The position numbers were made by a program, and so were the translations under genes. Positions 16,836-52,466 of a stretch of DNA of 64,000 nt are shown here, piece by piece (position 1 is the stretch's first letter; each line of letters starts with the position of its first letter). This DNA is from an uncultured Acidobacteriota bacterium (GTDB taxonomy: Bacteria; Acidobacteriota; Thermoanaerobaculia; UBA5066; Gp7-AA6), in contig CAVPRN010000002.1 of assembly GCA_963707935.1 (NCBI GenBank), forward strand, positions 176,542 through 240,541. Direction: 5' to 3'. The notes under the pieces are model-generated. The model did no database searches and was not told the DNA's origin. It saw only the letters and a program-made list of their open reading frames with translations.

Positions 16836-17059
16836 CGGTAGGAACCCTACCCCGTTCGCCCCCGCGGCCGCTCGACGCTGCAAAACCCTGTGCTCAAAGA
16901 GAGTTGACAGGGGCGGCAGTCTATGATTGCGTGTGCTTTCATTTACTTGTGTTCGCTTCGCGAGTCGGGTCCCCGCGGCGCCGTCGAAGCCGGAAGGCGC
17001 GGCCCGGCGGATGCTCGCCCGATCTCCAAGAGTGCGCCTCGGAGCGGAGAGGAGGGGGA

Positions 17060-20000
17060 ATGAAGAACTGGCGGATCTTTTCGATATCGCTCGTCGCGCT
17101 CGGCTTCCTCGTGACTTCGTCCTCCGCGCAGGTGGATACCGGCTCGATCCTGGGCACCGTGCGAGACGCAAGCGGCGGGGTGTTGCCGGGGGCGGCCGTG
17201 ACCCTGACCCAGAAAGAGACGAACGTCGCGACTCGATTGACGACCAACAGCCGCGGGGCCTACGAGGCCGTCGGCCTCGCGATCGGCACCTACACGATCA
17301 CGGTGGCGCTCCCGGGATTCAAAGCGGCCAGCCGGGAGAACGTCGGCCTGCGGATCCAGGATCGCCTCCGAATCGATTTCACGCTCGAGGTCGGAGCCGC
17401 GAGCGAGACGGTCGTGGTCTCGACCGAGGCGCCGATCCTCCAGACGCAGGAGGGCTCTCTCGGCCAGGTCATCGAGTCCGCACAGATCGAGGCGCTGCCG
17501 GTCAACGGCCGAAGTTTCCTTCCCCTGGCGGCGCTCACACCCGGGGTCTGGCTGGTCGGCGGCTCGACGAACGGAAACGCCGGTGAGGAAGACACCGTCA
17601 TCACCAACGGGATGCGGGCCTCCGCGACGAATTTCATGCTCGACGGCATCGACAACAACAACAACGACAGCCCCGGCCACCCGATCGTCGAGCCGAATGT
17701 CGATGCGATCTCGGAGTTCAAGGTCCAGACTTCGAACTATTCGGCGGAGTTCGGCCGCAACGGCGGCGCGGTCATCAACATGACGATCAAGTCGGGAGGC
17801 AACGATACGACCGGGACCGTCTTCCTGTTCGGGCGCAATCAAGGCCTCGAAGCCCGGGACTACTTCGCCGATCCGGAGGAGCCGAAGGCGCCGTTCAGCT
17901 TCTACCAGTTCGGCGGAACGCTCGGCGGCCCGATCGTGAGCGACAAGACCTTCTTCTTTGCCGATTTCCAGGGGACGAAGTCGAAGCGCTCGGACACGCT
18001 CACGCTCTCGGTCCCTACCGCGCGGATGCGCGCCGGTGATTTTTCCGAGGAAGGCAATCCGATCATCTACGACCCCACGACCGGCCAGCCGTTCGACGGC
18101 AACGTGATCCCGCAGAATCGGATCTCCCCGCTCGCGCAGTCGTTCATCAATCTCTACCCGAGCCCGAATCGCGAGGGTCTCCGCAACAACTACGTGGTCG
18201 CGCCGACCGTGACTCAGGACACCTACCAGGGGGACTTGCGCCTGGATCAGAATTTCTCACCCAGTGACTTCGTCTTCCTACGCGGCTCCTACGTCAACGT
18301 CTCGCGGTTCATCCCGGCGCCGCTCCCCGGCATCGCCGGCGGCGGCGACTACGGCGCCGGAGACACCAGCCGCGAGATCTGGGGCGCCGCCCTCGGCTAT
18401 TCGAAGACCCTGACGGACCACTCCGCGAACGAGCTCCGCGTCGGGTTCAACCACTTGTCGACGAGCGTCGGCGTTCCGGCCGGAGGGACCTACATTCCGC
18501 CGGAGAGCCTTCAGGTCCCCGGCGTGGTATTCGATCCCCGGGTCAACGGACTGACCAACTTCGCGCCCGACCAGTACTCCTTCATCGGGGATCCCGAATT
18601 CAATCCGACTTACACCCTCAGCCAGGAGATCCAGATCTCGGACACGCTCACGTTCCTTCTCGGAGAGCACACGCTCCGCACCGGTGTGGAGATTCGTCAG
18701 TCCCGTTTCAACCTGTTCCAGATTCCGCAGCCCCGCGGAAAGTTCACGTTCAGCGGCGAGTTCACGGCCGATCCGGCGGCCGACCACCTCGACCAGGGAG
18801 ATCCGATGGCGGACGCGCTCCTGGGGCTCGCTTCCCAGACCGACATCCAGAACATCACCGACGTCAAGAACCGGACGATGTACTACGCCGGCTTCATCCA
18901 GGACGATTTCCGGGTGACGAACAACCTGACGATCAACATCGGCCTGCGCTATGAATACACGAGCGCGACCCTAGAGACCAACGATCGCCAGAGCAACTTC
19001 AATTTCGCGACGGGGCAGATTCTCGTGGCGGGCCAGGACGGGAATTCGCGCGGTCTCATCGACGTGGACGAGAACAATTTTGCGCCGCGTTTCGGGGCCG
19101 CCTGGAGGCCGGGCGGAAGCGAGTGCTGGGTGGTGCGCGGCGGCTGGGGCCGGTTCTACAACAACCAGGAGCCGCGGACGGCGTTCCAGCTCGGGTTCAA
19201 TCCGCCGTTCTTCTTCTCGGTCAGCCGATTCAGCGACTTTGGTGTGACGCCGGCGGCCCAGGTCGACGAAGGGTTCCCCCCCGTCAACCCCGAGGACGCC
19301 GAATTCCCGCTCCTCGTCACCGTGGACGAGCGGTTCCGCAGCCCCTACTACGATCAGTGGAACGTGGCCGTCCAGCGGGTCATCGTGCCGTGGGACGCGA
19401 GCATCGAGCTCGGGTACGTCGGGACGCGCGGGCACCGGCTCCAGGTCCTCCGCGACCTGAACCAGCCCCCGCCGGGCCCGTTAGATGTCCAGGAGCGCCG
19501 CCCTTACCCGCAGTACGGCAACTTCGCTTCGATTCGAAATGACGGCAAGTCCGCGTACAACGGGTTCCAGGTCAAGTTCAGCAAGCGGTTGACGCGGGGG
19601 TTCTGGTTCCTCGCCTCGTACACCTACGGCAAGGCCAAGAGCGACCAGGGCGAGATCGGGCTCGCGTCTCCCTGGCCCCAGAACAGCCTGGACGTCGCTT
19701 CCGACTACGGGCGCTCCGACGGCGACCAGGTCCACCGGGTCGTGGCCAGCGCCACGTGGGACTTGCCCTTCGGCCAGGGCCGCACGTACATGAATCAGTC
19801 GGGCATCCTCGACATCCTCTTCGGCGGCTGGCAGCTCGGCGGCATCTTCAACTACGGCTCGGGATTTCCCTTCACGCCGCTGATCGGCGAAGATCCTTCC
19901 AACACGGGGACCTTCGGCTCGGTCCGACCCAACCTGGTCGGAGATCCGAAGGTGCCGAATCCCTCTCCGGATCGCTGGTTCAACAAGGACGCGTACGCCC

Positions 20001-20264
20001 CTCCCGACCTCTACACTTTCGGCAACGCGCCGCGAAACAGTCTGACCGGACCCGACGTTCACCAATCTCGACCTCTACCTGGCCAAGCGATTCGGCCTCG
20101 GGAAGGACATGTCTCTCGAGCTCCGCATCGAGGCCTACAACGTCCTGAACCACGCGAATTTCGCCCAGCCGGATCCCTTCGTCGACAGCGATTCCGGGGG
20201 TACGATCACCGGGCTCGCCGGACCGATGAGGGAGCTCCAGTGGGGCCTGAGGCTGTACTTCTGA
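17060..20264 (+). CDS. TonB-dependent receptor with carboxypeptidase-regulatory-like N-domain; frame broken ~20058
   Basis: Strong Shine-Dalgarno GGAGAGGAGGGGG, signal peptide, CarbopepD_reg-like N-domain, plug and barrel. The C-terminal frame reads ..FTNLDLYLAKRF...NHANFAQP...LRLYF* after a one-base shift at ~20058. Confidence 0.85.
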
Positions 20265-22345
20265 TGGGACGGTGGCCGGCGGCGCGAAACGCCGGCCACT
20301 CGCGCTCGGCCGACAAGAAAGCGTTCGCGGCGGCGCTGCTCGGCGGCGTTCTCCTCCCGGCGGCCGCCGGCGCCGTCACCGCCGCCGGCCGGGGCATCGA
20401 GCTCGAGTTCGACGCCCGGCTGCACAGCCGCGTCGTCGCCGTCCTGGACGGGAATCGGATCGAGCTCGGCCCCTTCTCCGCCTCCGAGACGGTGACGGCG
20501 GCCGGGGCCGAGCGGCTCGATTTCGAGCTCGTCGATCAGAGCGAGGAGGCCGTCTCGGATGCGATCGGGACCGGGCGCCGGCACCGGCTCGTCGGACGCG
20601 CGTCCGATCTCGAGAAGACAATCGAGATCACCTTCTACGACGACTGGCCGCAGGTGGCCGTGATGCAGTCGGTCTATTCGAACCGTGGGGACAAGCCGGT
20701 CGCGATCGAGGCGTGGACGCAGAATCTCTACGCGATCTCAGCCGCCGCCGGCGCCCCCGAGCCCGCGTTCTGGTCCTATCAGAGCGGCTCCTACGAGAAA
20801 CGACCCGATTGGGTGCTGCCGCTCCGCGTCGGCTTCCGGCAGGACAACTTCCAGGGGATGAACGCCGACGACTACGGTGGCGGGACGCCGGTCGCCGACG
20901 TCTGGAGGCGCGACGTCGGGCTGGCCGTGGGCCATCTCGAACTCGTGCCGAAGAGCGTCTCGCTGCCGGTCGCCCGGCCGACCCGGGACCGTGCGACGCT
21001 CGGGATCCGCGACGCCGTCGGGCGAACCCTCGCGCCGGGCGAGCGGCTGACGACGCTCCGGACCTTCGTCGCGGTCCACCGCGGCGATTACTTTCCGGCG
21101 CTCGTCGCCTACCGGCGGCTCATGCTGCGCCAGGGCGTGCGACTGCCGTCGGCGCCGCCCGCCGCCTTCGAGCCGATCTGGTGCGCGTGGGGCTACGGGC
21201 GAGAGTTCACGCCGGAACAGGTCCTGGCGACGATCCCGCTCGCGCAGAAGCTCGGCTTCGGCTGGGTCACGCTCGACGACGGCTGGCAGGTGGCCGAAGG
21301 CGACTGGACGCCGGTGCCGTCGAAGTTTCCGCGCGGCGACGCCGACATGAAGGCGTTCGTGGACCGCATCCACGCCGCCGGGATGCGAGCGCAGCTCTGG
21401 TGGACTCCGCTCGCGGCCGATCCGGGATCGCGGACCGCGCGAGACCACCCCGAGTGGCTGCTTCGCAATCGGGACGGCTCGACCCGGAAGATCAGCTGGT
21501 GGGACTCGTTCTACCTCTGCCCGGCGCTCGACGGCGTGCGCGACGACGCGCGGGCGTTCGTCCGCAAGGCGCTCGGCGAGTGGGGCTTCGACGGCCTGAA
21601 GATCGACGGCCAGCACCTGAACGGCGCGCCCCCCTGCTACGACGCCGCCCACGGGCACGCGTCGCCCGAGGACGCGCCGGAGGGCGTCCCCGGCTTCTTC
21701 CGCGCGATCTGGGACGAGGCCATCGCGACGCGCGCCGATGCGGTCGTCGAGATCTGCCCGTGCGGCACGGCCTACTCCTTCTTCACCCTGCCGTACCTGA
21801 ACATGACCGTCGCATCCGATCCGGAGAGCTCGTGGCAGGTGCGGTTGAAGGGCAAGACGCTGAAGGCCCTGCACGGGGACTCGATCGCCTATTTCGGCGA
21901 CCACGTCGAGCTCTCGACCGGCGGCGAGGATTTCGCCTCCACCTTCGGCGTCGGCGGCGTCGTGGGCACGAACTTCGCGTGGCCGGGAGCGCCGGGCAAG
22001 AAGGACAAGAAGCTCCTGCTCACCCCCGAGCGGGAGAAGAAGTGGGCCTTCTGGGTGAAGCTCTACCGGGAGAAGCGGCTCTCGGCGGGCGAGTATCTGG
22101 GCTCGCTGTACGACATCGGCTTCGACCGGCCCGAGACGCACGCGATCCGCAAGGGGGACGCCCTCTACTACGCCTTCTACGCCGGCCGCTTCGGCGGGAA
22201 AGTGGAGCTGCGCGGGCTCGAGAACCGGCGCTACCGCGTGCGCGACTACGAGACGGGCCGCGATCTCGGGTCCGTCGAGGGGCCGAAGGCGAGCCTCGCG
22301 CTCTCCTTCAAGCATCACCTGCTTCTGGAGGCACTGCCCGAGTAG
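20264..22345 (+). CDS. glycoside hydrolase, alpha-galactosidase / alpha-N-acetylgalactosaminidase-like (GH27/GH36 clan)
   Basis: ATG overlaps the TBDR stop (TGATG). Signal-like N-terminus. Motifs WCAWGYG, GFGWVTLDDGWQ and GLKIDGQH typical of melibiase-type TIM barrels. Confidence 0.7.
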   Translation: MGRWPAARNAGHSRSADKKAFAAALLGGVLLPAAAGAVTAAGRGIELEFDARLHSRVVAVLDGNRIELGPFSASETVTAAGAERLDFELVDQSEEAVSDAIGTGRRHRLVGRASDLEKTIEITFYDDWPQVAVMQSVYSNRGDKPVAIEAWTQNLYAISAAAGAPEPAFWSYQSGSYEKRPDWVLPLRVGFRQDNFQGMNADDYGGGTPVADVWRRDVGLAVGHLELVPKSVSLPVARPTRDRATLGIRDAVGRTLAPGERLTTLRTFVAVHRGDYFPALVAYRRLMLRQGVRLPSAPPAAFEPIWCAWGYGREFTPEQVLATIPLAQKLGFGWVTLDDGWQVAEGDWTPVPSKFPRGDADMKAFVDRIHAAGMRAQLWWTPLAADPGSRTARDHPEWLLRNRDGSTRKISWWDSFYLCPALDGVRDDARAFVRKALGEWGFDGLKIDGQHLNGAPPCYDAAHGHASPEDAPEGVPGFFRAIWDEAIATRADAVVEICPCGTAYSFFTLPYLNMTVASDPESSWQVRLKGKTLKALHGDSIAYFGDHVELSTGGEDFASTFGVGGVVGTNFAWPGAPGKKDKKLLLTPEREKKWAFWVKLYREKRLSAGEYLGSLYDIGFDRPETHAIRKGDALYYAFYAGRFGGKVELRGLENRRYRVRDYETGRDLGSVEGPKASLALSFKHHLLLEALPE

Positions 22346-31227: not shown

Positions 31228-32099
31228 TCGACGACCCGCAGTTCTTCGCTGTTCCCGCCGCCGGCCTTGATCGCGTACATCAGCTCGTCGGCCAGTCGAA
31301 CCATCCTCTCTGGAGAGTCCGGAGCCTTCCGGAATGCGACAGCACCGAAGACATGGTCAGGTTCCAGTCCTCCTGCAGACGGGCCGAGTTCAGGAGCAGA
31401 AGAAGCTTCCGGATCGCGGCCGATGCCTCCTCCGGGCCGGTCTCCGGAAACGCCGACGCAGAACTCGTCGCCGCCCAGGCGCGCGAAGATGTCGGTGGCC
31501 CGAAGGCTCCCCCGCACGGTCGCAGCGATGAGCGCCAGCAGGCGATCTCCTTCCTCGTGTCCCCTTTGGTCGTTGACCCCCTTGAAGCCGTCGAGATCGA
31601 GGTACGCGATCGTCAAGGGACGGCCATGCCGCGCCGCTCTCTTGATCTCAACCGCCGTGAGCTCGAAGAACGCCCGTGCGTTTTGCGATCCCGGTGAGCG
31701 GATCCGTACGGGCCAGACTCTGCTCGCGGGAATGCGCCGTCACGAAGGGACGACAGCAGCCAGCCGAAGACGAGAAAGACGCCGAGCAGCAGCAGGCTGT
31801 TCCAGTAGAGGATCGAGTCCGTCGAGAACGTATGCCCGGATTCCCGCGCGGTCGAAGTCATCCCAGGGCGCTGGCGACCGAGATCGCAACGCCGCTCCAC
31901 CGCCGAGAAGCCAGGAAGCGAACGAAATCGGGACGAGAAACAGGAAGGAGAGGCGAAGCTGCCATCCGGTCCGATCGCCGGCGAAGGATATGGCGCCGAC
32001 CATCGCGAACGCGAGGGCGAAGAGAAGGGGCCCGGGGATCACGCTTCGAGAGTCGCGCCGCGCCTTCATTTTCTCACTGACAGAATAACGCTCGGTCAA
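31224..32099 (-). CDS. diguanylate cyclase (GGDEF) with an N-terminal membrane domain, multiply frameshifted
   Basis: C-terminal frame has DPLTGIANR../YLDLDGFKGVNDQRGHEEGD...RLGGDEF. N-terminal TM segments sit in two other frames. Confidence 0.6.
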
Positions 32100-32148
32100 C
32101 CGAGACCGGGTAGCCCTCGATACTCACTTGTGTTTCAATCGCTCCGGC

Positions 32149-34420
32149 CATGGGTCGTCCGTTCCGGTTCCTCGTCGCTCTGATCCTCGGACTCGCTCTG
32201 CTGACGTGGGCGGCCTCCGTCATCGTCAACGAGACCACACGCGGCTGGTTCGAGAAGGACATGAACCTGCGAGCGCGGCTCGTCGTGAGCGGTGCGCGCA
32301 GGCCCTGATCTCGCACTGGCACAAGGAACAGCGGGCCGACCTGCGGGACCTGCTCATCGAAATCTCCCACGATGAGCGCATCATGGCGGCCGCGGCGTGC
32401 GCGTCGGATCTGACGCTCCTCAGCCGGACCGAAGACTACCCCGAGCACTTCACGTGCGCGGAGCTCGGAAAGCACGTTCGCGGCGCCGGCGGGAGCACGC
32501 GGGCGACTGGCTCTCCTGGAAGAGCATCCTCTCGCTGCCGGGCGGCGAGGCGCACGTGAGCGCGATTCCGGTGCTCGACGGCGGTCGCCTCTCGGATTCG
32601 TGGTGCTCGTGCACGATCTGAGCTTCGTCGAACGGCGAGAGGCGAAGACGCGGCAGTTTCTCCTGCTGGCGTTCGGATTTCTCGCGGTGGCGGCCTCCGC
32701 GGTGACGATCATCGCAGCTCGGCTCTCGTGGCGCGGATGGAGCAAGGACCTGCGGCGGTTCCTTCGGGGGGGCGCGGACCGCCCCGAGTTTCGGCCCATC
32801 CTGCGGGATGTCCGAGAGCTCGTCGATCGCATCGTCGCGGAGAAGGAGGCCGATCGCGAGGGAGGCGACTGGACGCCGCAGCGTCTCAAGCAAACGCTGA
32901 ACCGGTACCTGCACGGCGAGAGAGCGGTGATCGTGCGCGAATCGGGAACCCTACATCCACGAGCGAGATCAGGACGGCCGTCTCGCGCTCTTGCACCCGG
33001 CGAGCGGCCTGGTGACCGCGCTCGAGCCGGTGATGCGGGCCTGCTCAGGCGTCTGGATCGCCCACGGGAGCGGCTCGGAGATCGGGCGACAGCGGATCGC
33101 GAGGGACCGGATTGCGCGTGCCCCCTGGGGAAGAGTCGTACGTCCTGCGGCGGGTCTGGCTCTCCTCCGAGGAAGAGAAGGGCTACTACTACGGCTTCTC
33201 GAACGAGGGTCTCTGGCCGCTTTGCCACGTCGCCCACACGCGGCCGGTCTTCCGAAGGGAGGACTGGAAACAGTACCAGGCGGTGAACGAGAAGTTCGCC
33301 GAAGCTCGTCTGTAAGGAGGTCGACTCGGAAGATCCGATCGTCCTCGTGCAGGATTACCACTTGGCCCTCGCGCCGCGGCTGATTCGCGAGCGGCTGCCG
33401 CGGGCGACGGTCATCATGTTCTGGCACATCCCCTGGCCCAACTGCGGAGCAGTTCGGAATCTGCCCCTGGCGCGAGGAACTGCTCGACGGGATGCTCGGC
33501 GCGAGCATTCTGGGATTCCACACGCAGTCCCACTGCAACAACTTCGTGGATTCAGTGGATCGAACGCTCGAAGCTCGCATCGACCGCGAGCAGAACGCGG
33601 TCGTTCAGCACAGGGCGGAGCACGCTCGTACGCGCCCTATCCGATCTCGCTCGAGTGGCCGGTGCGGTGGCTCAAGACGGCTCCGCCCCCGGACGAATGC
33701 CGGGCCAGTGTGCTTCCGCGAGCTCGGACTGCCGTCGAACGCGCTTCTCGGCATCGGAGTGGACCGCCTCGACTACACCAAGGGCATCGAGGAGCGTCTC
33801 CTCTCCGTGGAGCGCCTGCTCGAGCGAATCGCCCGAGTTTCGCGGCCGATTCACGTTCGTCCAGCTGGCGGCGCCCAGCCGACGGCCATCCAGCGCTACC
33901 GGGAGCTCAACGAGAGGGTCGAGCGGGTCGCTGCGCGCAGTCAACGAGCGCTTCGGCGCGGACGGCTACCGTCCGATCGTGCTGCTGCCGGGCGCACCAC
34001 GAACCGCCGACCGTGTTTCGGCTACTACCGTGCCGCCGACCTCTGCTATGTGAGCAGCCTTCACGACGGGATGAACCTCGTGGCCAAGGAGTTCGTGGCG
34101 CTCGCGGGACGACGAGCGGGGTGTGCTGGTCCTGAGCCAGGTTCACGGGCGCGGCGCGGGAGCTGACCGAGGCGCTCATCGTCAATCCGTACGACCTGGA
34201 TCGAGGCGAGCGCGGCCCTCGCGGTCGCTCTCAAGATGTCCCCGGACGAGCAGCGCGACAGGATGCGGGCCATGCGGGCGTTCCTCGCGGAATTCAACGT
34301 CTACCGCTGGGCGGGCCGGATGCTCGTGGATGCGGCACGTCTGCGACGGCGCGACCGCCTCACGGGGCGTTTGATGGACCACCCGGCCGCGGTGGTGGCC
34401 GCCAGGGCGCTGAAAGAACG
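32149..34420 (+). CDS. otsA: trehalose-6-phosphate synthase (OtsA, GT20) fused to a ~260 aa N-terminal membrane and sensor-like extension, multiply frameshifted
   Basis: N-terminal TM1 (FLVALILGLALLTW), a Cys-containing periplasmic-like segment and TM2 (FLLLAFGFLAVAASAV). Then GT20 motifs VIVANREPY, YYYGFSNEGLWPLCH, YHLALAP, YVSSLHDGMNLVAKEF spread over all three frames. 3' end approximate. Confidence 0.6.
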
Positions 34421-34474
34421 GGACTTGCCGCCGACTTCCGGCCCTCCGTGCTATCCTTCGCCCCCTCTTCCGGT

Positions 34475-34551
34475 GGGGCTGTAGCTCAGTTTGGGAGAGC
34501 GCCTGAATGGCATTCAGGAGGTCGCCAGTTCGATCCTGGTCAGCTCCACCA
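34475..34551 (+). tRNA. tRNA-Ala (anticodon GGC), CCA encoded
   Basis: Cloverleaf: acceptor GGGGCTG/CAGCTCC with the G3:U70 Ala identity pair, anticodon loop aTGGCAt, T-arm GTTCGATCC, 3' CCA. Confidence 0.9.
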
Positions 34552-34697
34552 ATGCCCCACGACGCTTCAAGACCCGGCACAAACAACTGCCGCGATCGGA
34601 CTGGATCGAGCCGGCGACCTCCGTGAGGGGCACGGGGGGCGCCACGCGCCCCCCGCCTGAGACGTTCGACGGAATCGTCACCCGAGCGAAGCGAGGC

Positions 34698-34727
34698 GTG
34701 ACGGTTCGATCCCGTTCAGCTCCACCA
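34698..34727 (+). repeat. duplicated tRNA 3' end (T-arm + acceptor + CCA), att-like fragment
   Basis: ggttcgatcccgttcagctccacca matches the tRNA-Ala 3' end (gttcgatcctggtcagctccacca), about 150 bp downstream. No complete tRNA folds here. Confidence 0.7.
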
Positions 34728-34820
34728 AGCACGTCGCTCCGCTCGATCGTGGACCTTCGCCGGCCGGTCTTCAGATAGCTCTGGCTTCGGATTGCTCACA
34801 TGTTCCGGCCGGCGAGCTGG

Positions 34821-34847
34821 CGCGAAGCCTGGTCGCGTTGCGAGCGC
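34821..34847 (-). repeat. inverted partial copy of the structured repeat element (outer stem only)
   Basis: gcgcgaagcctggtcgcgttgcgagcg is the reverse complement of the ..cgctcgcaacgcgaccaggtttcgcg.. arm of copies B and C. Confidence 0.5.
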
Positions 34848-35003
34848 GACGAAAGACCGAGGCGTCGCTCGAACTGACCGCGGTAAGCCTGTTTCGCGCA
34901 CCGCGCGCAATCTCCGCGAGGGCGGCGGAGAAAGTCCGCGCGCCGCGGACGAATTGACTTCAGGCCGGCAAGCGCGACACCTGGATCTTCGCGTCGGCGC
35001 GCG

Positions 35004-36158
35004 TCAGAAGACAGGGATAGAAGGCTCGCGGCGCAGAAAGACCCTCCCGGCCTCCTCCCAGACAAACGGCGCGACGGTAAAATGGTGGAGAACGGCCTCG
35101 GCATCGCGCGCGTGGCGCTGTATCGAAGAGGAGGAGAAAATGGCGCTGCCCCCGGCAAGGACGTTGGCGGTTCGCGCGACCCGCGCTCCCGTCTCCGAAG
35201 CCTGACTCGCGGCGACGCGTCCCCGGGCGAGCTGCCGGAGCGTCGGAGCCGTTCCCGCGCGCACCGTCTGCCACATCTCCTCGACCGTCTCGTGGAGGAA
35301 CGCGCGGGCGCCGCCCAGCTCTGCCTCGGCCCGCGCCACTCCGATCTGGGCGGCCGGCCGGTCGGCGAGGGGTTGCGCGTAGAGCGTCGGGGCCTTCGTC
35401 TGCGCGAGGTCGGAGAAGCTCGTCGAGAGCCGCGCGGGCGATGCCGAGACTCACGGCCGCGACCTGGTCGACGAAGAATCCGAGGGGTGGCATCTGATAC
35501 AGAGGCTCGCGGCGGTGCCCCGAGGGATCGAGCAGCGCAAAGATCCGTTCCTCGGGCACGAAGACGTCATCCGCGCTGAAGTCGTTGCTTCCCGTGCCGC
35601 GCAGCCCGCTCACGTGCCACGTGTCGTGGATCACGACGCTCGAGACCGGCATGCAGACGTGGATGATCTCCGGACCGTACGCCGTCATCCTGGGTTGGCC
35701 GTTCTCGATGACGAGACAGCCGGCCCAGACCCAGTCGGAATGCGTGATGCCGCTCGCGAACGCCCACCGGCCGCTCACGCGCACGCCTCCTTCCACGCGG
35801 ACCGCCGCCCCGAGGGCGCCGCGATTCCGGCGGCCGGCGCCATCGGATCCGCGAAGACCTCCTTCGCGCCCCGCTCGGGCATGTACCCCGCTGCGACGTT
35901 GCTGCCGGTCGCGATCATCGTGCACCAGCCTGTCGAACCGTCGGCGGCCGCGACCGATTCGATCGCACGCAGAACGTCGAGGGGCTCGGCCTCACGGCCG
36001 CCGAGAAAGCGGGGCACCGTGAGCGAGAAGACGCCGGTCTGGCGCAGCTCCTCGGCGAGGTCGCGGGGCAGGCGACGCGCTTTTTCGATCTCGGCGCGGC
36101 GTGTGCGGATCGCGGGAAGAAGATTGTCGATGGCCGTCAAAACGCTGGTCGTATCCAT
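35004..36158 (-). CDS. acyl-CoA dehydrogenase-like flavoprotein (type-2 ACAD / SfnB-DszC-like), multiply frameshifted
   Basis: GGAGGA Shine-Dalgarno + ATG. N-terminus MDTTSVLTAIDNLLP..., middle ..WAFASGITHSDWVW.., C-terminus ..LAGGSAIFSSSSIQRHARDAEAVLHH.. in three frames. Confidence 0.55.
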
Positions 36159-36374
36159 GGATCCTCCGAGTCGAATGTCGAGACCCCCACATTCTAGACA
36201 TCGGCCTCGGTCCGAAGGAACCCGGCCCGCAGAGTCGGGGCCCTCGACTCCTCTCCTGGGCAAGTCGCAGCGGGAATCCGGAATGGCACTCCGATGTCGA
36301 CGGTGCGATCCCGTACGGCTCCATCAGGAGGTTGCGCGTTCCCGCGGCGCGCCGAGCGCCTCCTCCGCCGCGAC

Positions 36375-38287
36375 CTAGCGCTCGCCGCCGAAATCCTCCT
36401 CGGGCGACTGGCGCTGCTCGTCGAGCACGCGGTTGATGTTGACGGCGGCGGAAATGAGACCCAGGTGGGTGAACGCCTGGGGGAAGTTCCCGAGCGACTC
36501 GCCCGTCAGGCCGATCTCTTCGGAGTAGAGGCCGAGATGATTGGCGTAGCCGAGCATCTTCTCGAAGGTGAGACGCGCCGCGTCGAGCCGTCCCGACCCG
36601 GGCGAGAACCTCCGCCAGCCAGAACGTACACATGGAGAAGGTTCCCTCCTCCTCCTCGCTGATGCCGTCGGGTGAGACCCGCGGATCGTAGCGCCGGACG
36701 AGGTTGTCGCTCTCGAGATTCCCCTGGATCGCCTGGAGGGTGCCGAGCATGCGGGGATCGGAGGGAGAGATGAACTTGACCATCGGAGCCAGCAGCATGG
36801 ACGCGTCCAGCACGTCGCTGTCCAGGCTCTGGACGAAGGAGTTCCTGGAACGGGAGAAGCCCCGCTCCATGATCGTCTCGTAGATCGCGTCTCGCGTGGC
36901 GAGCCATCGGTCGCGGTCCCCCGGCAGGCTCTCTCTTCATGGAGAGGCGAAATGCGCGATCCAGCGCCACCCAGCACATCATCTTGGAGAACGTGAAGTC
37001 CTGACGCCCTCCGCGCACCTCCCAGATACCTTCGTCCTTCTCGCTTCCAATGGTCGCAAACCCAGCCGGCGATGCCGCGCACGAGGTTCCAGAGGCGATG
37101 GGACAGGGGCTCGCAGTACTTGGCATAGAGATAGAGGGCATCGAGCAGATCACCCGCGACGTCGAGCTGGAACTGCCTGGCCGCGTCGTTCCCGATTCGG
37201 ACAGGGCGAGAGCCTCGGTAGCCCTCCAGGTGAGCGAAGCTGGATCTCCGAAATCTCCCGGCGTCCGTCGATCCCGTAGAGGACGCCGCAAGCCTTCCTC
37301 GATATGGCAATGCTCCGCCAGGAAAGAGATGAACTGGACCGCCTCCTCCGTGATACCCCACCCGCAGGAACGCGTAGACGGTGAACGCGGCGTCGCGAAT
37401 CCACGTGTACCGGTAGTCCCAGTTGCGATAACCGCCGACGCGCTCGGGGAGACTGCAGGTGGCCGCCGCCACGATGGCGCCCGTAGGCCGGAACGTCAGC
37501 AGTTTCAACGTCAGCGCGGATCTCTTGACCATCTCCCGCCAGCGGCCCTGGTACCGGCTTCGGATGATCCAGTTCTGCCAGAAACGCAGAGTGCGCCGGA
37601 ACTCGCTCTGGCAGATTTCCTCGAGCTTCTCCAGTGGAGGAGGCGGCTCCTCGTCGGCCTGCGCGAGAACGACCGGAATCTGGTCGCCTTCGCGAAGAAG
37701 GAACTCCGCGACGACGGCGCCCCCGTCGATCCGGGCCTCCAGCGGCGTGACGAGATTGACCGCGAGATCGCCCGCCGAGAAGCTGAAAGCCGAATTCGGT
37801 TCTCCGAATCCGGCTCTCCTGGCGTCCGTAGTCGAAGGCCGGCCGGCATTCGAGGCGGAAGGGGATCTCGCCACGCACGCCGCGGACCATCCGGACCACC
37901 TGATGGTCGGCTCGACGTTTCGGTCCGCCGCCGGCGTGGATGGGCATGAAATCGACGACTTCTCCGACGCCGTCCGGCGTCAGAAAGCCGCGTCATCAGG
38001 ACATTCGAGTCCGGAAGGTACATCTGCCGGCGGCCCGCTTCTTCCGAGACCGCGGCGATTCGGAAGTGGCCGCCGCGGCGGTCATCCAGAATCGAAGCGA
38101 AGAGACTCCCCGAATCGAAATAGGGAAGGCAAAGCCAATCGATCGTTCCGTCCGTACCGACCAGCGCACAGGTGTGCAGGTCGCCGATGATCCCGTGACT
38201 CTCGATCGGCAGGTAGCTCAAGGCTCTTTCGTCGTCGTTTCGAGAAGCCGGGCAAGGGCCGGCACCGGGCGCCTCCCCTCGCGGCAT
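36375..38287 (-). CDS. glycoside hydrolase family 15 (glucoamylase/trehalase-like), multiply frameshifted
   Basis: N-terminal domain [39 protein letters not shown]-terminal ..[17 protein letters not shown]. At least four frame switches. Confidence 0.65.
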
Positions 38288-38532
38288 TCCGCGGCCGGCG
38301 CCGACAGACCGCACAAAAACTCCTCGAGGCATCGGTTTCGAGCGGCTCCTCTGCCAGATGCGCGGCCGCAGCCTCGGCTCCTCTGGAGAGAGTAGCATGG
38401 CGCCTTCCCCGACCGGCGAGGCCGGGTCCCCCCGCACAATATCGGATTCCTGTGCATCCGGAATCGCATGCCGTCGCGCCGCCGGTTCGGTCGGGCGCCG
38501 GCTCGGCCGCGCTTTTCGAGCTCGTTGCAGCG

Positions 38533-39120
38533 TCAGGCGAGCGCTATGAACGCCTTCGGATCGCTCCACTGCCCGCGCTCATAGAGGAACCGAACCGCCT
38601 TGTCCACGACGATCTGGCCGTCGTCGGGGGAGATCGCGATCTCGGCGCGCTCGAGCGGCCGGGGCGTCGGGCCCTCGAAGTTGATGCCCGAAATGTAGTA
38701 GCCCGACCCGTGGCAGGGGCACTTGAACTTGTTTTGCGCAGGGAGCCAGTTGGGCGTGCAGCCGAGATGCGTGCAGACGGCGATCAGCGCGTAGATCGAG
38801 TCGGTGTTACGCACGATCCAGACGCCGAACTTCTCCTTCCATCGCTCGTCCACGCCCATGCCGTAGCTCGACGGGTCGCCGGCTTTGAAGCGCGTCGGCG
38901 GCTCGAAGAGGACATTGGGGAAAAGGAAGCGGACCGTCGCGGCCAGCCCGGCGGCCGTGGCCGCGGCGAAGGCGATCCAGGCCAGGACCATCCACTTCAG
39001 AGCCGAGCGGCGGTCCATCGCGTCGGTCCGAGGGTCGGCCGTCCCGAGCACCCCCTCGGGAGAGGGCTCTGTCGGGCTCGAGCCGGTAGGCGTTTTCGGA
39101 ATCTCCGGGACGGCGCTCAC
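38533..39120 (-). CDS. Rieske [2Fe-2S] protein, copy 1 (orphan)
   Basis: TAT-like DRRSALKWM, CTHLGC...CPCHGS cluster boxes. About 85% identical at protein and DNA level to the Rieske gene at 51867-52466. Confidence 0.8.
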   Translation of the reverse strand: MSAVPEIPKTPTGSSPTEPSPEGVLGTADPRTDAMDRRSALKWMVLAWIAFAAATAAGLAATVRFLFPNVLFEPPTRFKAGDPSSYGMGVDERWKEKFGVWIVRNTDSIYALIAVCTHLGCTPNWLPAQNKFKCPCHGSGYYISGINFEGPTPRPLERAEIAISPDDGQIVVDKAVRFLYERGQWSDPKAFIALA

Positions 39121-39329
39121 GATCTTCTTCCGGAGATCTCAACGCAGTTTCGGCTCGTCGGATTTCGCACGGATCGTCCCTCGGCCCGCAAGGCTTCGAG
39201 ACGAGCGGAAATCCCCCTTCCGCCGGTCCGCGCGGGAACCGCCGCCTGGGAGTCCGCGGCCGACGGTTCCTGGCCGCCGCGAGGCCGCCGTTCTGAAATA
39301 TATATCGTAATCCGATATGTTTCTCCAGA

Positions 39330-39644
39330 ATGGCGAAGGAGGAGCTCATGGCGAGGTTGAAGGTCCTTCCGACCGCATTGGCGGCCGGCTTCACCTGGGG
39401 GATCGGGGTCCTGCTTCTCGGCAGGGTCTCGGGTGGAGGGTGGGGAGCGCGGTTGGTCGAGGTACTCTCGAGCGTCTATCTCGGTTATGCCTCGACTTTT
39501 CTGGGCGGGCTGATCGGTGGGCTCTGGGCGTTCGCGGACGGGTTCCTCGCGGGCCTCGTGCTGGCGTTCTTCTACAATGCCTTCGCCGGCCCGCGCTCCG
39601 AACCGGTCAGCATTCTGAAACGGACCGAGCAGCCGGCGCACTGA
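39330..39644 (+). CDS. small hypothetical membrane protein
   Basis: AAGGAGGAG Shine-Dalgarno. AT-rich promoter-like stretch (tgaaatatatatcgtaat) upstream. 104 aa with 3 TM helices. Confidence 0.4.
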   Translation: MAKEELMARLKVLPTALAAGFTWGIGVLLLGRVSGGGWGARLVEVLSSVYLGYASTFLGGLIGGLWAFADGFLAGLVLAFFYNAFAGPRSEPVSILKRTEQPAH

Positions 39645-40098
39645 GCCGGACGTCGCGCGGGCCGCGCCGGCCGGAGGCGCGGGTGCAGGTGTGTCATCGG
39701 AGCGCCGTCGATCTGGTTCGCGACCGCCGGGGCGCGACGTCCGGAAAACTCCGATCGGATAGCGGGAGCTGGATTGAGCCGGAGTGATTCCGGCACGCCG
39801 TGCCGCTTTTCCGAGAATCAGATGAAGCGCGGCAGGGCGCAGCGAAATTCGGAAAGCCGAAGAAACCACTGCAGTACCGCCCTTCTGCACCGAGTCGTCG
39901 GAGATTCGCTGGCAGGAGAATCGGCGGGCGCACCTCCTCGTAACCGTCAGGTAGGATTCGAGGCTACGCTCCCGGAGCCGAGTCGGGCCGATCCCGGACG
40001 AATCGCTGACGAGCGCGACCCCGCGGTCGGACCGGGCGCTCGCCAGGAGGAGGGCGTCTGACGGGGCGCCGTCGGCCACTTTCGAGCTCGAAGGGACG

Positions 40099-40918
40099 AT
40101 GCGACTTCTGAATCCCGACTTCGATCCCGCCCGCTTTTCGGAACGGGTCCGAATCGCGCCGCATTGCGCGCTGCTACTCGACTACGACGGCACGCTCGCC
40201 CCTTTCGCGCCGGATCGGAGTCACGCGATCCCGTACCCGGGAGTGCGCGAGGCGCTTCGAGCGATCGCGGGCGACGGCCGCACGCGGCTGGGCATCGTCA
40301 GCGGCCGGCCGGCCGAGGATCTGGCGCGGCTGACGGCGCTCCCGGCCGGCGTGGAGCTGTGGGGTTCCCACGGGCTCGAGCACGTGCCGGAAGAGGGCGA
40401 AGCGCTCACCAATCTTGCTGGGGAAGTCCGGCATGCGCTCGAAGAGGCCGAAGAGTGGCTGTCGCGAAACGGCTGGGACTCCCTGCTCGAGAAAGCCGTA
40501 CGGCCTCGCCCTGCACGGCAGGGGTCGTCCGGAGCTGTTCGCGGCTGCAGCTCCCCTCTTTCTCGAACGCTTCTCGGATCCGCTGCGCCGCGCGGGTCTG
40601 GAGATTCGTTCGTTCGACGGCGGGGTGGAAGTCCGGCGCGAGGGGATTCACAAGGGGCTCGCCGTCGAGCGGGTGCTGGCGGAAATGGGTCCCGGCACGC
40701 CGGTGGCCTATCTGGGCGACGACGAGACGGACGAGGACGCTTTCATGGCGATTCGGGGGAGGGGTCTGGCGGTCCTCGTGCGGCCGGAAGAACGCCCGAC
40801 CGGGGCGGATCTATCCCTGCGCCCTCCCGAAGAGCTGCTCGATTTTCTCGCACGTTGGGCGGATCCGGAAGGAGGCGTCCCGCTGCTTGCCGGTGTTTTG
40901 AGCGGATCCCCCTCGTGA
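40099..40918 (+). CDS. otsB: trehalose-6-phosphate phosphatase (OtsB, HAD family), frameshift ~40500
   Basis: HAD motif I LLLDYDGTLAP. C-terminal half (..GIHKGLAV..YLGDDETDEDAF..) in ORF 40415-40918. Confidence 0.7.
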
Positions 40919-40978
40919 AAGGATATGGACCCGTCCGTCCAGGCGGCTGCAGAAAGTCCGTAGAACGGCCGCCAAAGC

Positions 40979-41007
40979 TTGACATGGATCAATTAGTTCG
41001 ATATAGA
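40979..41007 (+). promoter_or_regulatory. sigma-70-type promoter (TTGACA-N17-TATAGA) for the MarR-like regulator
   Basis: Near-consensus -35/-10 with 17-nt spacing in an AT-rich island. ATG lies ~10 nt downstream, giving a near-leaderless transcript. Confidence 0.5.
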
Positions 41008-41016
41008 GTGAACTCA

Positions 41017-41493
41017 ATGAACCGCAGTGCCAGGCCTCCCGCGGACCTCGCCTTCCACGTCGAGGAGTGGGGGCTCCTCTTCGAGCAGTCGGGGCTTCCC
41101 CGGATGGCGGGGAGAGTGCTCGGCTGGCTCCTCGTCTGCGATCCCCCGGAGCAGACCGCCGCGCAGGTCGTCGAGGCCCTGTCCGCCAGCAAGGGCTCGA
41201 TCTCGACGACGCTCCGGCTTCTCGAGCGGTTCGGCCTCGTCGAGCCCGTGGGCCGTCCGGGCGAGCGGCGAACGTACTTCCGGATCGCGCCGGGGGCGTT
41301 CACGACCATGATGGAAGACAAACTGAAGTCCGTCGCGACCTGGCGGGAGCTCGCGGACCGCGGGATCGCGATCCTCCAGAAGTCGGGGCCGGAACGGCTG
41401 CGCCGCCTCCAGGCCGTGCACGACTTCTACGCCTTCCTCGAGCGGGAGTTCCCCGCGCTGATCCTCCGCTGGAGGAAGGAGCATCCGAAATGA
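41017..41493 (+). CDS. MarR/GbsR-like winged-helix transcriptional regulator
   Basis: wHTH ..AAQVVEALSASKGSISTTLRLLERFGLVE..RRTYFRI. Confidence 0.6.
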   Translation: MNRSARPPADLAFHVEEWGLLFEQSGLPRMAGRVLGWLLVCDPPEQTAAQVVEALSASKGSISTTLRLLERFGLVEPVGRPGERRTYFRIAPGAFTTMMEDKLKSVATWRELADRGIAILQKSGPERLRRLQAVHDFYAFLEREFPALILRWRKEHPK

Positions 41494-41999
41494 TCGCCGC
41501 CGCCGGGCTCGCGCTCCTGCTCGGAGCCGCCGGCGCGCGGCCGACCGTCACGCCCGCCGCGGGCAAGGAGGCCGCCGTGTCCCGGACGAAGGACGAGGAA
41601 ACCATCCGCCGGACGTTCGCGGCCTTCACCGAGGCCGTGAGCCGCGAGGATTTCGAGGCCGTCCTCGACATGATCACCGACGACGCCGTGTTCTGGACCG
41701 CGAACTACCCCGCGATCACCGGCAAGGCTGCCCTCCGCGCCGCGTACGCCGGCCTCGCGGCGTACCGCGTCCGCCAGGAGTTCGAGATCGAGGAGCTGCA
41801 GGTCTGCGGCGACTGGGCCTTCGTGCGCGGCTACGAGAACTTCCGGCTGGACCCGAAAGACGGTGTGGGCGCGCCGATCGAGATCAAGCGGCGGCGCGCC
41901 CTCTCGATCCTGCGCCGGCAGGCCGACGGCTCGTGGAAGACCGCGCGCGGGATGACGAATTACGATGCGCCTCCGCCGCAGCCGCGACAAGACGAGTGA
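41490..41999 (+). CDS. SnoaL/NTF2-like (DUF4440-type) secreted protein
   Basis: ATGA overlap with the regulator. Signal peptide. ..FTEAVSREDFEAVLDMITDDAVFW.. and a C-terminal ..DGSWKTARGM.. pattern. Confidence 0.6.
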   Translation: MIAAAGLALLLGAAGARPTVTPAAGKEAAVSRTKDEETIRRTFAAFTEAVSREDFEAVLDMITDDAVFWTANYPAITGKAALRAAYAGLAAYRVRQEFEIEELQVCGDWAFVRGYENFRLDPKDGVGAPIEIKRRRALSILRRQADGSWKTARGMTNYDAPPPQPRQDE

Positions 42000-42015
42000 T
42001 GCCTCAGTGACTCAA

Positions 42016-42178
42016 CCGCTCGCAACGCGACCAGGTTTCGCGACCTAAGGAGCGAAACGACTCGCGTTGCGGGAGCCGGAGCGCAGCAAGGGAATCGGCG
42101 AGCGGTCGAGCCCCTTTGGGCGAGCCGCTCGCCGGTGCGCCCCGCAGGGCGCAGATTCCCGAGCAAGCGAAGGCGACG
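42016..42178 (+). repeat. structured intergenic repeat element, copy B (full length)
   Basis: Nested hairpins: cgctcgcaacgcgacc...ggtttcgcg-N-cgaaacg...tcgcgttgcgggagc, then gagcccctttgggcgagc and ggtgcgcc ccgcag ggcgcag palindromes. Confidence 0.8.
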
Positions 42179-42179
42179 G

Positions 42180-42428
42180 TCAGTAGAAGTCGGAACAGGA
42201 GAGGTAGTAGCCGCAGGCCGGCTCCGGGCAGAGGAGCTTGCACTTCCTCTCGAGGAGCGTCGCGCCGCAGTTGGGGCAGACCCGTTCGGGGCGGTGCTCG
42301 GACGGCGTCTCCTCCGGCGGCCGGCTCGGCGCGGTCTCCCGAGCGCGAAGATCGGACGCGGGCTCGCTCACGGCTTCGGAGTCGGCGTCGGTGTCGCCGG
42401 GGGCGGCTCCGTCTTCGCGAGGAGCCAT
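42180..42428 (-). CDS. small zinc-ribbon protein (hypothetical)
   Basis: CPNCG...[13 protein letters not shown] four-Cys ribbon. Might be the C-terminal part of the upstream lipoprotein if an indel is present. Confidence 0.35.
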
Positions 42429-51866: not shown

Positions 51867-52466
51867 TCACGTCAGCTTGACGAACGCCTTCGCGTCGGAC
51901 CACTGTCCCCGCTCGTAGAGGTATCGGGTCGCCTTGTCCACGACGATCTGCCCGTCGTCGGGCGAGACCGTGATTTCGGCCCGCTCGAGCGGCCGCGGCG
52001 CCGGGCCTTCGAAGTTGATGCCCGAAACGTAGTAGCCCGAACCGTGGCAGGGGCACTTGAACTTGTTCTGCGCCGGCAGCCAGTTGGGCGTGCAGCCCAG
52101 GTGGACGCAGACAGCCACGAGAGCGTAGATCGAGTCGGTGTTGCGGACGATCCACACCCCGTATTTCTCCTTCCACCGCTCGTCCACCCCCGGCGCGTAG
52201 GTGGACGGGTCCCCCGCCTTGAAGCGGGTCGGGGGCTCGAAGAGGACGTTGGGAAAGAGGAAACGCACGGTCGCCGTCAGCCCCGCCGCGGTCGCGGCGG
52301 CGAAGCCGACCCACGCGAGCGCCATCCATTTGAGGGCGGAGCGCCGCGTCACCCCGTCCGGGGTGACGTCGGCATCGGGCGGCGGCTCGATCTGTCGCTC
52401 GGGAGTCGACATCCCTGGGGAAGGGAGCCTATCAGACGGTCCGGCGCCGCTCAAGCCGCGGCGCAC
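51867..52466 (-). CDS. Rieske [2Fe-2S] protein, copy 2 (in bc operon)
   Basis: TAT-like TRRSALKWM. CVHLGC...CPCHGS. Start may be the internal MSTPERQ (52412). Confidence 0.85.
   Translation of the reverse strand: MRRGLSGAGPSDRLPSPGMSTPERQIEPPPDADVTPDGVTRRSALKWMALAWVGFAAATAAGLTATVRFLFPNVLFEPPTRFKAGDPSTYAPGVDERWKEKYGVWIVRNTDSIYALVAVCVHLGCTPNWLPAQNKFKCPCHGSGYYVSGINFEGPAPRPLERAEITVSPDDGQIVVDKATRYLYERGQWSDAKAFVKLT

Follow-up and report, generated by a model that had tools for sequence, protein, structure and literature searches.

The window analysed here is a stretch of 64,000 nucleotides (nt) from the genome of an uncultured Acidobacteriota bacterium (contig CAVPRN010000002.1 of assembly GCA_963707935.1), and its forward strand carries a gene, here called TM-otsA, in which an N-terminal module with two predicted transmembrane (TM) segments precedes the glycosyltransferase family 20 (GT20) domain of a trehalose-6-phosphate synthase, OtsA. 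The encoded protein runs from a first TM segment (TM1) through a predicted outside domain of ~145 amino acids (aa) with a conserved cysteine pair, a second TM segment (TM2) and a ~65-aa helical linker to the GT20 (OtsA) domain. The initial annotation of this DNA had proposed a ~260-aa two-TM extension on otsA, and the module is indeed 258 aa long and contains exactly two hydrophobic segments (aa ~5-25 and ~171-191), the only Kyte-Doolittle peaks of the protein above 1.6 in a 19-aa window. The gene and its parts are as follows.

32150-34412, forward strand: TM-otsA, a putative membrane-anchored trehalose-6-phosphate synthase of 751 aa, placed by alignment to an intact gene of a related genome (locus L002) and by its Pfam GT20 match; the true stop is uncertain, at ~34412-34420
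32162-32224 (aa ~5-25), forward strand: TM1, a hydropathy peak and part of helix 3-48 of the AlphaFold2 (AF2) model, preceded by the N-terminus MGRPFR, which is predicted to be cytoplasmic
32225-32656 (aa ~26-170), forward strand: predicted PDC/Cache-like extracytoplasmic domain, from alignments A1 and A3, an AF2 predicted local distance difference test score (pLDDT) >90 and Foldseek matches to WalK, CitA and DctB
32398-32400 and 32455-32457, forward strand: the cysteine pair, C84 and C103, from the alignments
32657-32719 (aa ~171-191), forward strand: TM2, the second and last hydropathy peak, within AF2 helix 157-204
32720-32920 (aa 192-258), forward strand: cytoplasmic linker, a predicted helix-loop-helix-loop-helix, from its conservation and AF2 helices 157-204, 214-233 and 242-252 (pLDDT 55-70)
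32921-34334, forward strand: OtsA-like GT20 catalytic domain (Pfam PF00982, E 6.5e-119; OtsA structure 5jij, E 1.9e-87)

No intact open reading frame (ORF) spans the region 32149-34420 of the window, where the forward-strand fragments are 143, 228, 262 and 83 aa long and a three-frame reading shows the protein sequence hopping repeatedly between frames. Frames were placed by frameshift-aware dynamic-programming alignment of protein to DNA, with the intact 750-aa ORF of locus L002 as reference. This rebuilt a single continuous product of 751 aa, from the ATG at 32150 to 34412, in which 625 of 745 residues (84%) are identical to the L002 protein, after 20 frame corrections (14 of +1 nt and 6 of +2 nt) and with no in-frame stop. 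The initial annotation had allowed that a stop might divide the N-terminal reading frame from otsA; the corrected sequence holds no stop codon between the N-terminal and GT20 parts.

The fusion of the N-module to GT20 is genuine. A locus survey, covering one genome per GTDB species and searched with the eight-sequence alignment A2, fetched 80 loci, all from metagenome-assembled genomes (MAGs), and 66 of these carried an intact ORF of 735-757 aa with the same architecture. The intact ORFs came from independent assemblies of Acidobacteriota, Myxococcota, Planctomycetota, Pseudomonadota and Gemmatimonadota, which rules out an artefactual fusion. Acidobacteriota (Thermoanaerobaculia, Vicinamibacteria and Terriglobia) contributed 44 of the 80 loci, Myxococcota / 'Deltaproteobacteria' 15, Pseudomonadota 11 and Planctomycetota 7, with one locus each from Gemmatimonadota, Bdellovibrionales and a genome of doubtful label. 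The closest loci, from Acidobacteriota/Thermoanaerobaculia, were ~80% identical to the window in DNA. Nor is the design as unusual as had been proposed, since the N-module is encoded in at least 172 species-representative GTDB genomes and its profile gave 1,443 matches (903 at E <= 1e-10) among 1.84 billion representatives of 50%-identity clusters. A search seeded with the most divergent member added a further clade in Burkholderiales (Ramlibacter, Comamonadaceae and Rubrivivax), Frateuria, Smithellaceae and others.

Searching proteins with the N-module alone recovered 126 sequences with E-values down to 1e-112, all of them fragments of 452 aa or fewer; many were named 'trehalose-6-phosphate synthase, partial', and 39 ran from residue 1 into GT20. 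That the word-index protein searches returned only proteins of ~460 aa or fewer, though full-length members of ~750 aa exist, reflects retrieval bias and not biology. Among the 250 best relatives, tails lacking GT20 proved to be out-of-frame junk or chimeras. Databases name the ~750-aa proteins simply 'trehalose-6-phosphate synthase', and the N-module was not annotated as a domain wherever this was tested. The initial annotation had also considered that the extension might be a common, already annotated OtsA N-domain: common it is, as the species count shows, whereas neither Pfam nor NCBIfam holds an annotation for it.

The catalytic part of TM-otsA is a near-complete GT20 domain. Pfam Glyco_transf_20 covered aa 257-723 of a stitched 755-aa version of the product with 398 bits, against a gathering cut-off of 32.5, and matched profile positions 2-470 of 473. 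The junction, VIV/ANREPY, lies at 32921-32950 with a frameshift at 32936, in agreement with the start near 32935 (VIVANREPY) first proposed. Among solved structures Mycolicibacterium thermoresistibile OtsA (5jij) ranked first, ahead of fungal Tps1 and then E. coli OtsA, and all PDB matches began at query residue 252 or later. Aligned to 5jij, the protein retains the motifs ANR(E/L)P, YYxGFxNxxLWPLxH, QDYH, (F/W)H(I/V)P(F/W)P, DRLDYTKG, PSR and DGMNLVAKE, reading ANREP, WHxPWP and APSR at the variable ones, and its glycine-loop GG reads SG; the residues of these motifs presumably have the same roles in substrate binding and catalysis as their E. coli OtsA counterparts. NCBIfam ranked OtsA models first, below their equivalog cut-offs: the TIGR02400 (trehalose_OtsA) cut-off of 564.85 was not reached by the stitched window protein (420 bits) or by the intact L002 protein (414 bits), and PRK14501 scored 470 bits against 634, with the glucosylglycerol-phosphate synthase model TIGR02398 (GgpS) at 309-312 bits. 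Scores below the TIGR02400 cut-off point to a divergent OtsA subfamily, and the domain probably makes trehalose-6-phosphate from nucleotide-glucose and glucose-6-phosphate. The GT20 domain of the TM form was also unusually uniform when compared among Acidobacteriota, Myxococcota, Planctomycetota and Pseudomonadota (alignment A3; mean pairwise identity 0.75, minimum 0.66), which hints at horizontal spread of the whole TM-otsA cassette.

Conservation extends across the N-module. In 67 full-length sequences the invariant positions were L15, W33, D37, R41, L69, D75, R77, P98, G133, G150, D157, R164, F176, P217, D221, W242, R246, L247 and E258, and C84 and C103 were each 99% conserved. Mean pairwise identity rose from 0.50 in the outside domain to 0.61 in the linker and 0.75 in the GT20 domain, indicating that the module is under purifying selection and that the linker, with its motifs SWRGW, EF.P..RDVR.LV.R and W242/R246/L247, is better conserved than the outside domain. 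The invariant charged residues D37, R41, D157 and R164 sit on two membrane-proximal stalk helices at similar height above the membrane. Established knowledge of OtsA places the GT20 domain in the cytoplasm, where its substrates are. Because of this need for cytoplasmic substrates, together with the basic N-terminus and the position of the cysteine pair in the loop, we infer an N-in/C-in topology with the outside domain extracytoplasmic. C84 and C103 probably form a disulfide; a single sequence of the 33-member set lacks both cysteines together, and this joint loss fits such a bond. The Cys-containing outside segment of ~190 aa first described thus keeps its cysteines and shortens to ~145 aa.

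The fold of the N-module was modelled with AF2 from the 33-sequence alignment A1, giving a mean pLDDT of 82, above 90 in the outside domain and 55-70 in the linker. The predicted elements follow one another as helices (H) and strands (E) in the order H3-48, H50-55, H59-73, E78-85, E90-93, H103-110, E122-128, E131-142, E145-155 and H157-204, which is the order of a typical PDC/sCache domain: the long helix that leaves TM1 leads to a pair of short helices, after which two strands, one helix and three further strands precede the helix that enters TM2. The predicted structure accordingly has the helices and the five-stranded sheet with an inserted helix, between two TM segments, by which a PDC fold is recognized. 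In Foldseek searches against the PDB the best match was a model of full-length WalK, its HAMP domain included, which aligned with the N-module over 271 columns (E 1.7e-8, TMq 0.64); it was followed by crystal structures of WalK/YycG extracellular domains (E 2e-5 to 1e-4) and by the ligand-binding domains of CitA, DctB, LuxQ and Cache chemoreceptors (E 2e-3 to 1e-2). Predicted fold and topology thus support a sensor-like character for the extension, as originally suggested. By sequence, the first 256 aa of the stitched product gave nothing significant in Pfam or NCBIfam. The sole recurring N-module match, to DUF7268, was sub-threshold, lay over TM1 and was taken as helix composition.

A tRNA gene and two genes related to trehalose lie nearby, at the following positions.

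34475-34551, forward strand: tRNA-Ala(GGC), 60-odd nt after the end of TM-otsA
36395-38221, reverse strand: GH15 trehalase/glucoamylase-like gene, with nine frameshifts and no stops in the frameshift-aware alignment
~40099-40881, forward strand: otsB, trehalose-6-phosphate phosphatase, with two frameshifts and Pfam Trehalose_PPase matches on both fragments

Both protein-coding neighbours had been named in the initial annotation, and both recur across the survey. In 60 of the 71 loci with enough sequence, otsB directly followed TM-otsA on the same strand, and in another 6 it lay upstream; GH15 was the immediate upstream neighbour, in divergent orientation, in 40 of 75. The usual order elsewhere is thus a divergent GH15, TM-otsA and then otsB, and the window is atypical, with otsB 5.7 kb off and GH15 downstream on the other strand. 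The GH15 homologues carry a trehalase-like TREH_N domain in addition to Glyco_hydro_15, so that the context of otsB and a TREH_N-bearing GH15 supports a role in trehalose metabolism, and the two genes are conserved partners of TM-otsA. In L009 a second, soluble GT20 gene of 499 aa (L009:13105-14601, forward strand; Pfam 472 bits; ~38% identical to the TM form) adjoins TM-otsA and otsB, and L007 has a similar soluble gene in convergent orientation (reverse strand) ~3.1-4.5 kb downstream of TM-otsA, so that the TM and soluble forms are neighbours in some genomes. Two minor features were seen at these loci. The tRNA-Ala of the window occupies the place held by otsB in most related genomes and may mark a rearrangement point. 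A gene for a VKOR-DsbA/thioredoxin fusion, a disulfide-bond formation protein, adjoins GH15/TM-otsA in L002 (L002:6528-7985, forward strand), which is possibly relevant to the cysteine pair and possibly a coincidence.

As a whole, the initial observation is borne out once the loop length and the strength of a nearby promoter are corrected; its interpretation holds for the fusion, the sensor-like fold and the otsB and GH15 partners, fails for the MarR-like regulator and the rarity of the design, and is not established for the HAMP domain. Our favoured reading is that TM-otsA acts as a receptor-enzyme whose outside domain modulates OtsA, a proposal that we consider evenly poised between right and wrong. 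An outside cue, either a ligand or the redox state of a disulfide, would be received by the ~145-aa PAS/Cache (PDC)-like domain stapled by the cysteine pair and would displace TM2 and the pair of stalk helices in the manner of PDC-type histidine kinases, with the invariant pairs D37/R41 and D157/R164 carried on the signalling helices. The conserved linker would relay this movement to GT20 and alter its activity or oligomeric state, and a co-transcribed OtsB would dephosphorylate the trehalose-6-phosphate, so that trehalose synthesis could be tuned at the level of the enzyme without a transcriptional relay. More tentatively, and with confidence somewhat short of even, we suggest that the N-module represents an undescribed extracytoplasmic receptor family dedicated to OtsA, through which an outside cue could switch compatible-solute synthesis within seconds and without transcription; candidate cues are a solute, envelope or water-potential stress and the redox state of the conserved disulfide.

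Several results weigh against a receptor-enzyme. Sensor domains typically recur in kinases, cyclases and chemoreceptors alike, whereas the N-module was joined to GT20 only, and no other output domain followed it in any of the 250 best relatives. No Pfam Cache, PAS or CHASE family matched any of the 33 members at E <= 0.001, the marginal matches being dCache_3 (0.01, two of 33 members), CHASE4 (0.051, two of 33) and PAS_4 (0.11, one of 33), and the N-module profile found nothing significant among PDB sequences (best E 0.36). Conservation is strongest next to the membrane, with no obvious pocket. The HAMP-like linker first proposed is not established, given that PF00672 (HAMP) matched none of the 33 members even at E <= 10 and that the linker is modelled at low confidence (pLDDT 55-70 throughout, with the TM2 helix running to ~204, then a loop and helix 214-233 in the monomer model); its likeness to HAMP is limited to its position and its helix-loop-helix layout. 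The full-length model (target P0121; pLDDT 64) left the C-terminal half, and with it any contact between linker and GT20, unmodelled. The main rival draws on the same facts: the N-module may be a passive anchor or scaffold that tethers and perhaps dimerizes OtsA at the inner membrane, with an outside domain that is structural or docks proteins, for example placing trehalose-6-phosphate synthesis beside OtsB, a transporter or envelope partners. The exclusive pairing with GT20, never with signalling outputs, would be expected of an anchor, as would the membrane-proximal conservation and the lack of a match to any known ligand-binding family or motif, and the extracellular domain of WalK, the best structural match, is reportedly known mainly for partner interactions. 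We nevertheless hold the anchor to be the unlikelier account, since a folded, conserved domain of 145 aa with a predicted disulfide, followed by a linker more conserved than that domain (0.61 versus 0.50), far exceeds what an anchor needs; canonical OtsA, moreover, works as a soluble enzyme, and the soluble GT20 genes beside TM-otsA in L009 and L007 suggest that the two forms are non-redundant.

Two minor rivals concern the enzyme and the state of the gene. The product of GT20 might be some other sugar phosphate, for instance glucosylglycerol phosphate or a further trehalose-like compound, in which case the protein would not be a true OtsA, as the shortfall against the TIGR02400 and PRK14501 cut-offs and the score of the GgpS model could indicate. 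This is very improbable, because the OtsA models clearly outscore the GgpS model, the top solved relatives are all OtsA/Tps1 enzymes, and a Trehalose_PPase match is found in the operon partner, a trehalase-like TREH_N domain in the adjacent GH15. Equally, the frameshifts could be biological and the trehalose genes here decaying pseudogenes. Frame changes are unevenly spread over the 64-kb window and densest at 30-43 kb, where otsA has 20 (8.8 per kb), GH15 nine and otsB two; by comparison, the Rieske gene at 38546-39013 has none, the interval 17058-22310 just two, and some other genes stay in one frame for kilobases. The G+C content, ~70% in the window, is slightly lower across 32-40 kb. Neutral decay, however, would bring substitutions and stops far faster than indels, and no in-frame stop occurs in the 751 + 605 + 280 aligned codons of otsA, GH15 and otsB, with amino-acid identities to orthologues still at 84% and 72%. 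Frame changes are also found all over the window, and several related long-read MAG proteins in databases show similar out-of-frame tails. Decay therefore seems highly unlikely. Given many indels, zero stops and 72-84% amino-acid identity, the window copy is most likely broken by single-base indels alone that look like sequence or assembly error. All nine frame changes in GH15 are single-base insertions, whereas otsA required 14 single-base and 6 two-base corrections, and the indels in the window genes had no obvious homopolymer placement.

Compared with known systems, TM-otsA shares with the canonical soluble OtsA/Tps1 enzymes (E. coli 1GZ5/1UQU; M. thermoresistibile 5JIJ) a catalytic domain homologous over its full length, aligned substrate-binding motifs and the pairing with otsB. 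The canonical enzymes are cytoplasmic proteins of 450-500 aa that lack membrane segments, whereas TM-otsA adds a 258-aa module absent from any solved OtsA and falls below the TIGR02400 equivalog cut-off. Plant class I trehalose-6-phosphate synthases such as AtTPS1 also have an N-terminal extension, an autoinhibitory one that regulates GT20 catalysis; unlike the N-module, it is soluble, short, unrelated in sequence and without a membrane or extracytoplasmic part. The input modules of sensor histidine kinases of the WalK/YycG and CitA/DcuS/DctB types, built as TM1, an extracytoplasmic PAS/Cache domain, TM2 and a HAMP domain or linker, resemble the N-module in predicted fold and topology, with a sequence identity of 10-17%, but their output is a kinase where that of TM-otsA is a glycosyltransferase, and no phosphorelay partner is implied for the latter.

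The closest design precedent is the membrane-bound phosphomannomutase AlgC, in which a periplasmic dCache domain between two TM segments, overlooked in annotation and predicted to sense, precedes the enzyme (Qian, Fei and Galperin, bioRxiv 10.1101/589796). Both proteins place a two-TM periplasmic domain of the Cache superfamily, predicted in the case of TM-otsA, N-terminal to a cytoplasmic sugar-phosphate enzyme. They differ in that enzyme (a phosphohexomutase versus GT20), in the input domain (a dCache domain of ~200 aa recognizable by sequence in AlgC, a single PDC-like domain of ~145 aa in TM-otsA) and in distribution (Gammaproteobacteria for AlgC; mainly Acidobacteriota, Myxococcota, Planctomycetota and Burkholderiales for TM-otsA), and their N-modules have no sequence relationship. 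Within the full-text literature searched, whose coverage excludes some journals, no account of a bacterial OtsA that is membrane-anchored or fused to a sensor came to light. Fusion of a receptor domain to an enzyme is thus a kind already known, and what is new is its GT20 version with an undescribed N-module.

Trehalose is one of the main compounds that protect against drying and osmotic stress, and control of the OtsAB pathway is generally attributed for the most part to transcription and to soluble allosteric effectors. If the receptor-enzyme proposal is true, a sensor-wired OtsA would link the environment directly to an enzyme in hard-to-culture bacteria that dominate soils, among them Acidobacteriota, Myxococcota, Planctomycetota and Burkholderiales. 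A glycosyltransferase would likewise be added to the few metabolic enzymes that carry a fused Cache-type receptor, with membrane-bound AlgC as the known precedent. Irrespective of mechanism, a conserved 258-aa module present in hundreds of protein clusters lacks a domain model, and such a model would make for better annotation and yield a clear construct for ligand screening.

The other genes around the trehalose loci of the window are as follows.

34960-36263, reverse strand: frameshifted gene of the acyl-CoA-dehydrogenase family, with Acyl-CoA_dh_N and Acyl-CoA_dh_2 in different frames, unrelated to trehalose
38546-39013 and 51876-52373, both reverse strand: two Rieske [2Fe-2S] paralogues
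41027-41480, forward strand: MarR/GbsR-like winged-helix regulator, starting at ATG 41027, with a Pfam MarR_2 helix-turn-helix at ~41089-41271
41604-41940, forward strand: SnoaL-like/DUF4440 domain, immediately following the MarR-like gene but in a different frame

The full order is therefore TM-otsA, tRNA-Ala, the acyl-CoA-dehydrogenase-like gene, GH15 on the opposite strand, a Rieske gene, a small membrane-protein ORF, otsB, MarR_2 and the SnoaL-like gene. In several related loci a single segment matches both Rieske genes, at 80-85% DNA identity, and six loci (L001, L002, L005, L006, L010 and L018) have a Rieske gene near TM-otsA. The MarR-like regulator assigned to the trehalose cluster by the initial annotation is present in the window, but it recurs in only one of the 80 loci (L005, 9.7 kb away) and is therefore not part of the conserved module. 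In L005 it recurs together with the SnoaL-like gene (72-76% identity), and the pair may form a unit of its own. The promoter proposed for the regulator is visible as TTGACA (at 40978), a 17-nt spacer and TATAGA (to 41006), with the ATG ~21 nt past the -10 element; calling it strong overstates the case, as a consensus sigma-70 scan of 31600-42200 returned no sites. The same interval, 40975-41030, is an AT-rich island in a genome of 70% G+C, and a short inverted repeat (AGTTC...GAACT) over its -10 element resembles an autoregulatory operator.

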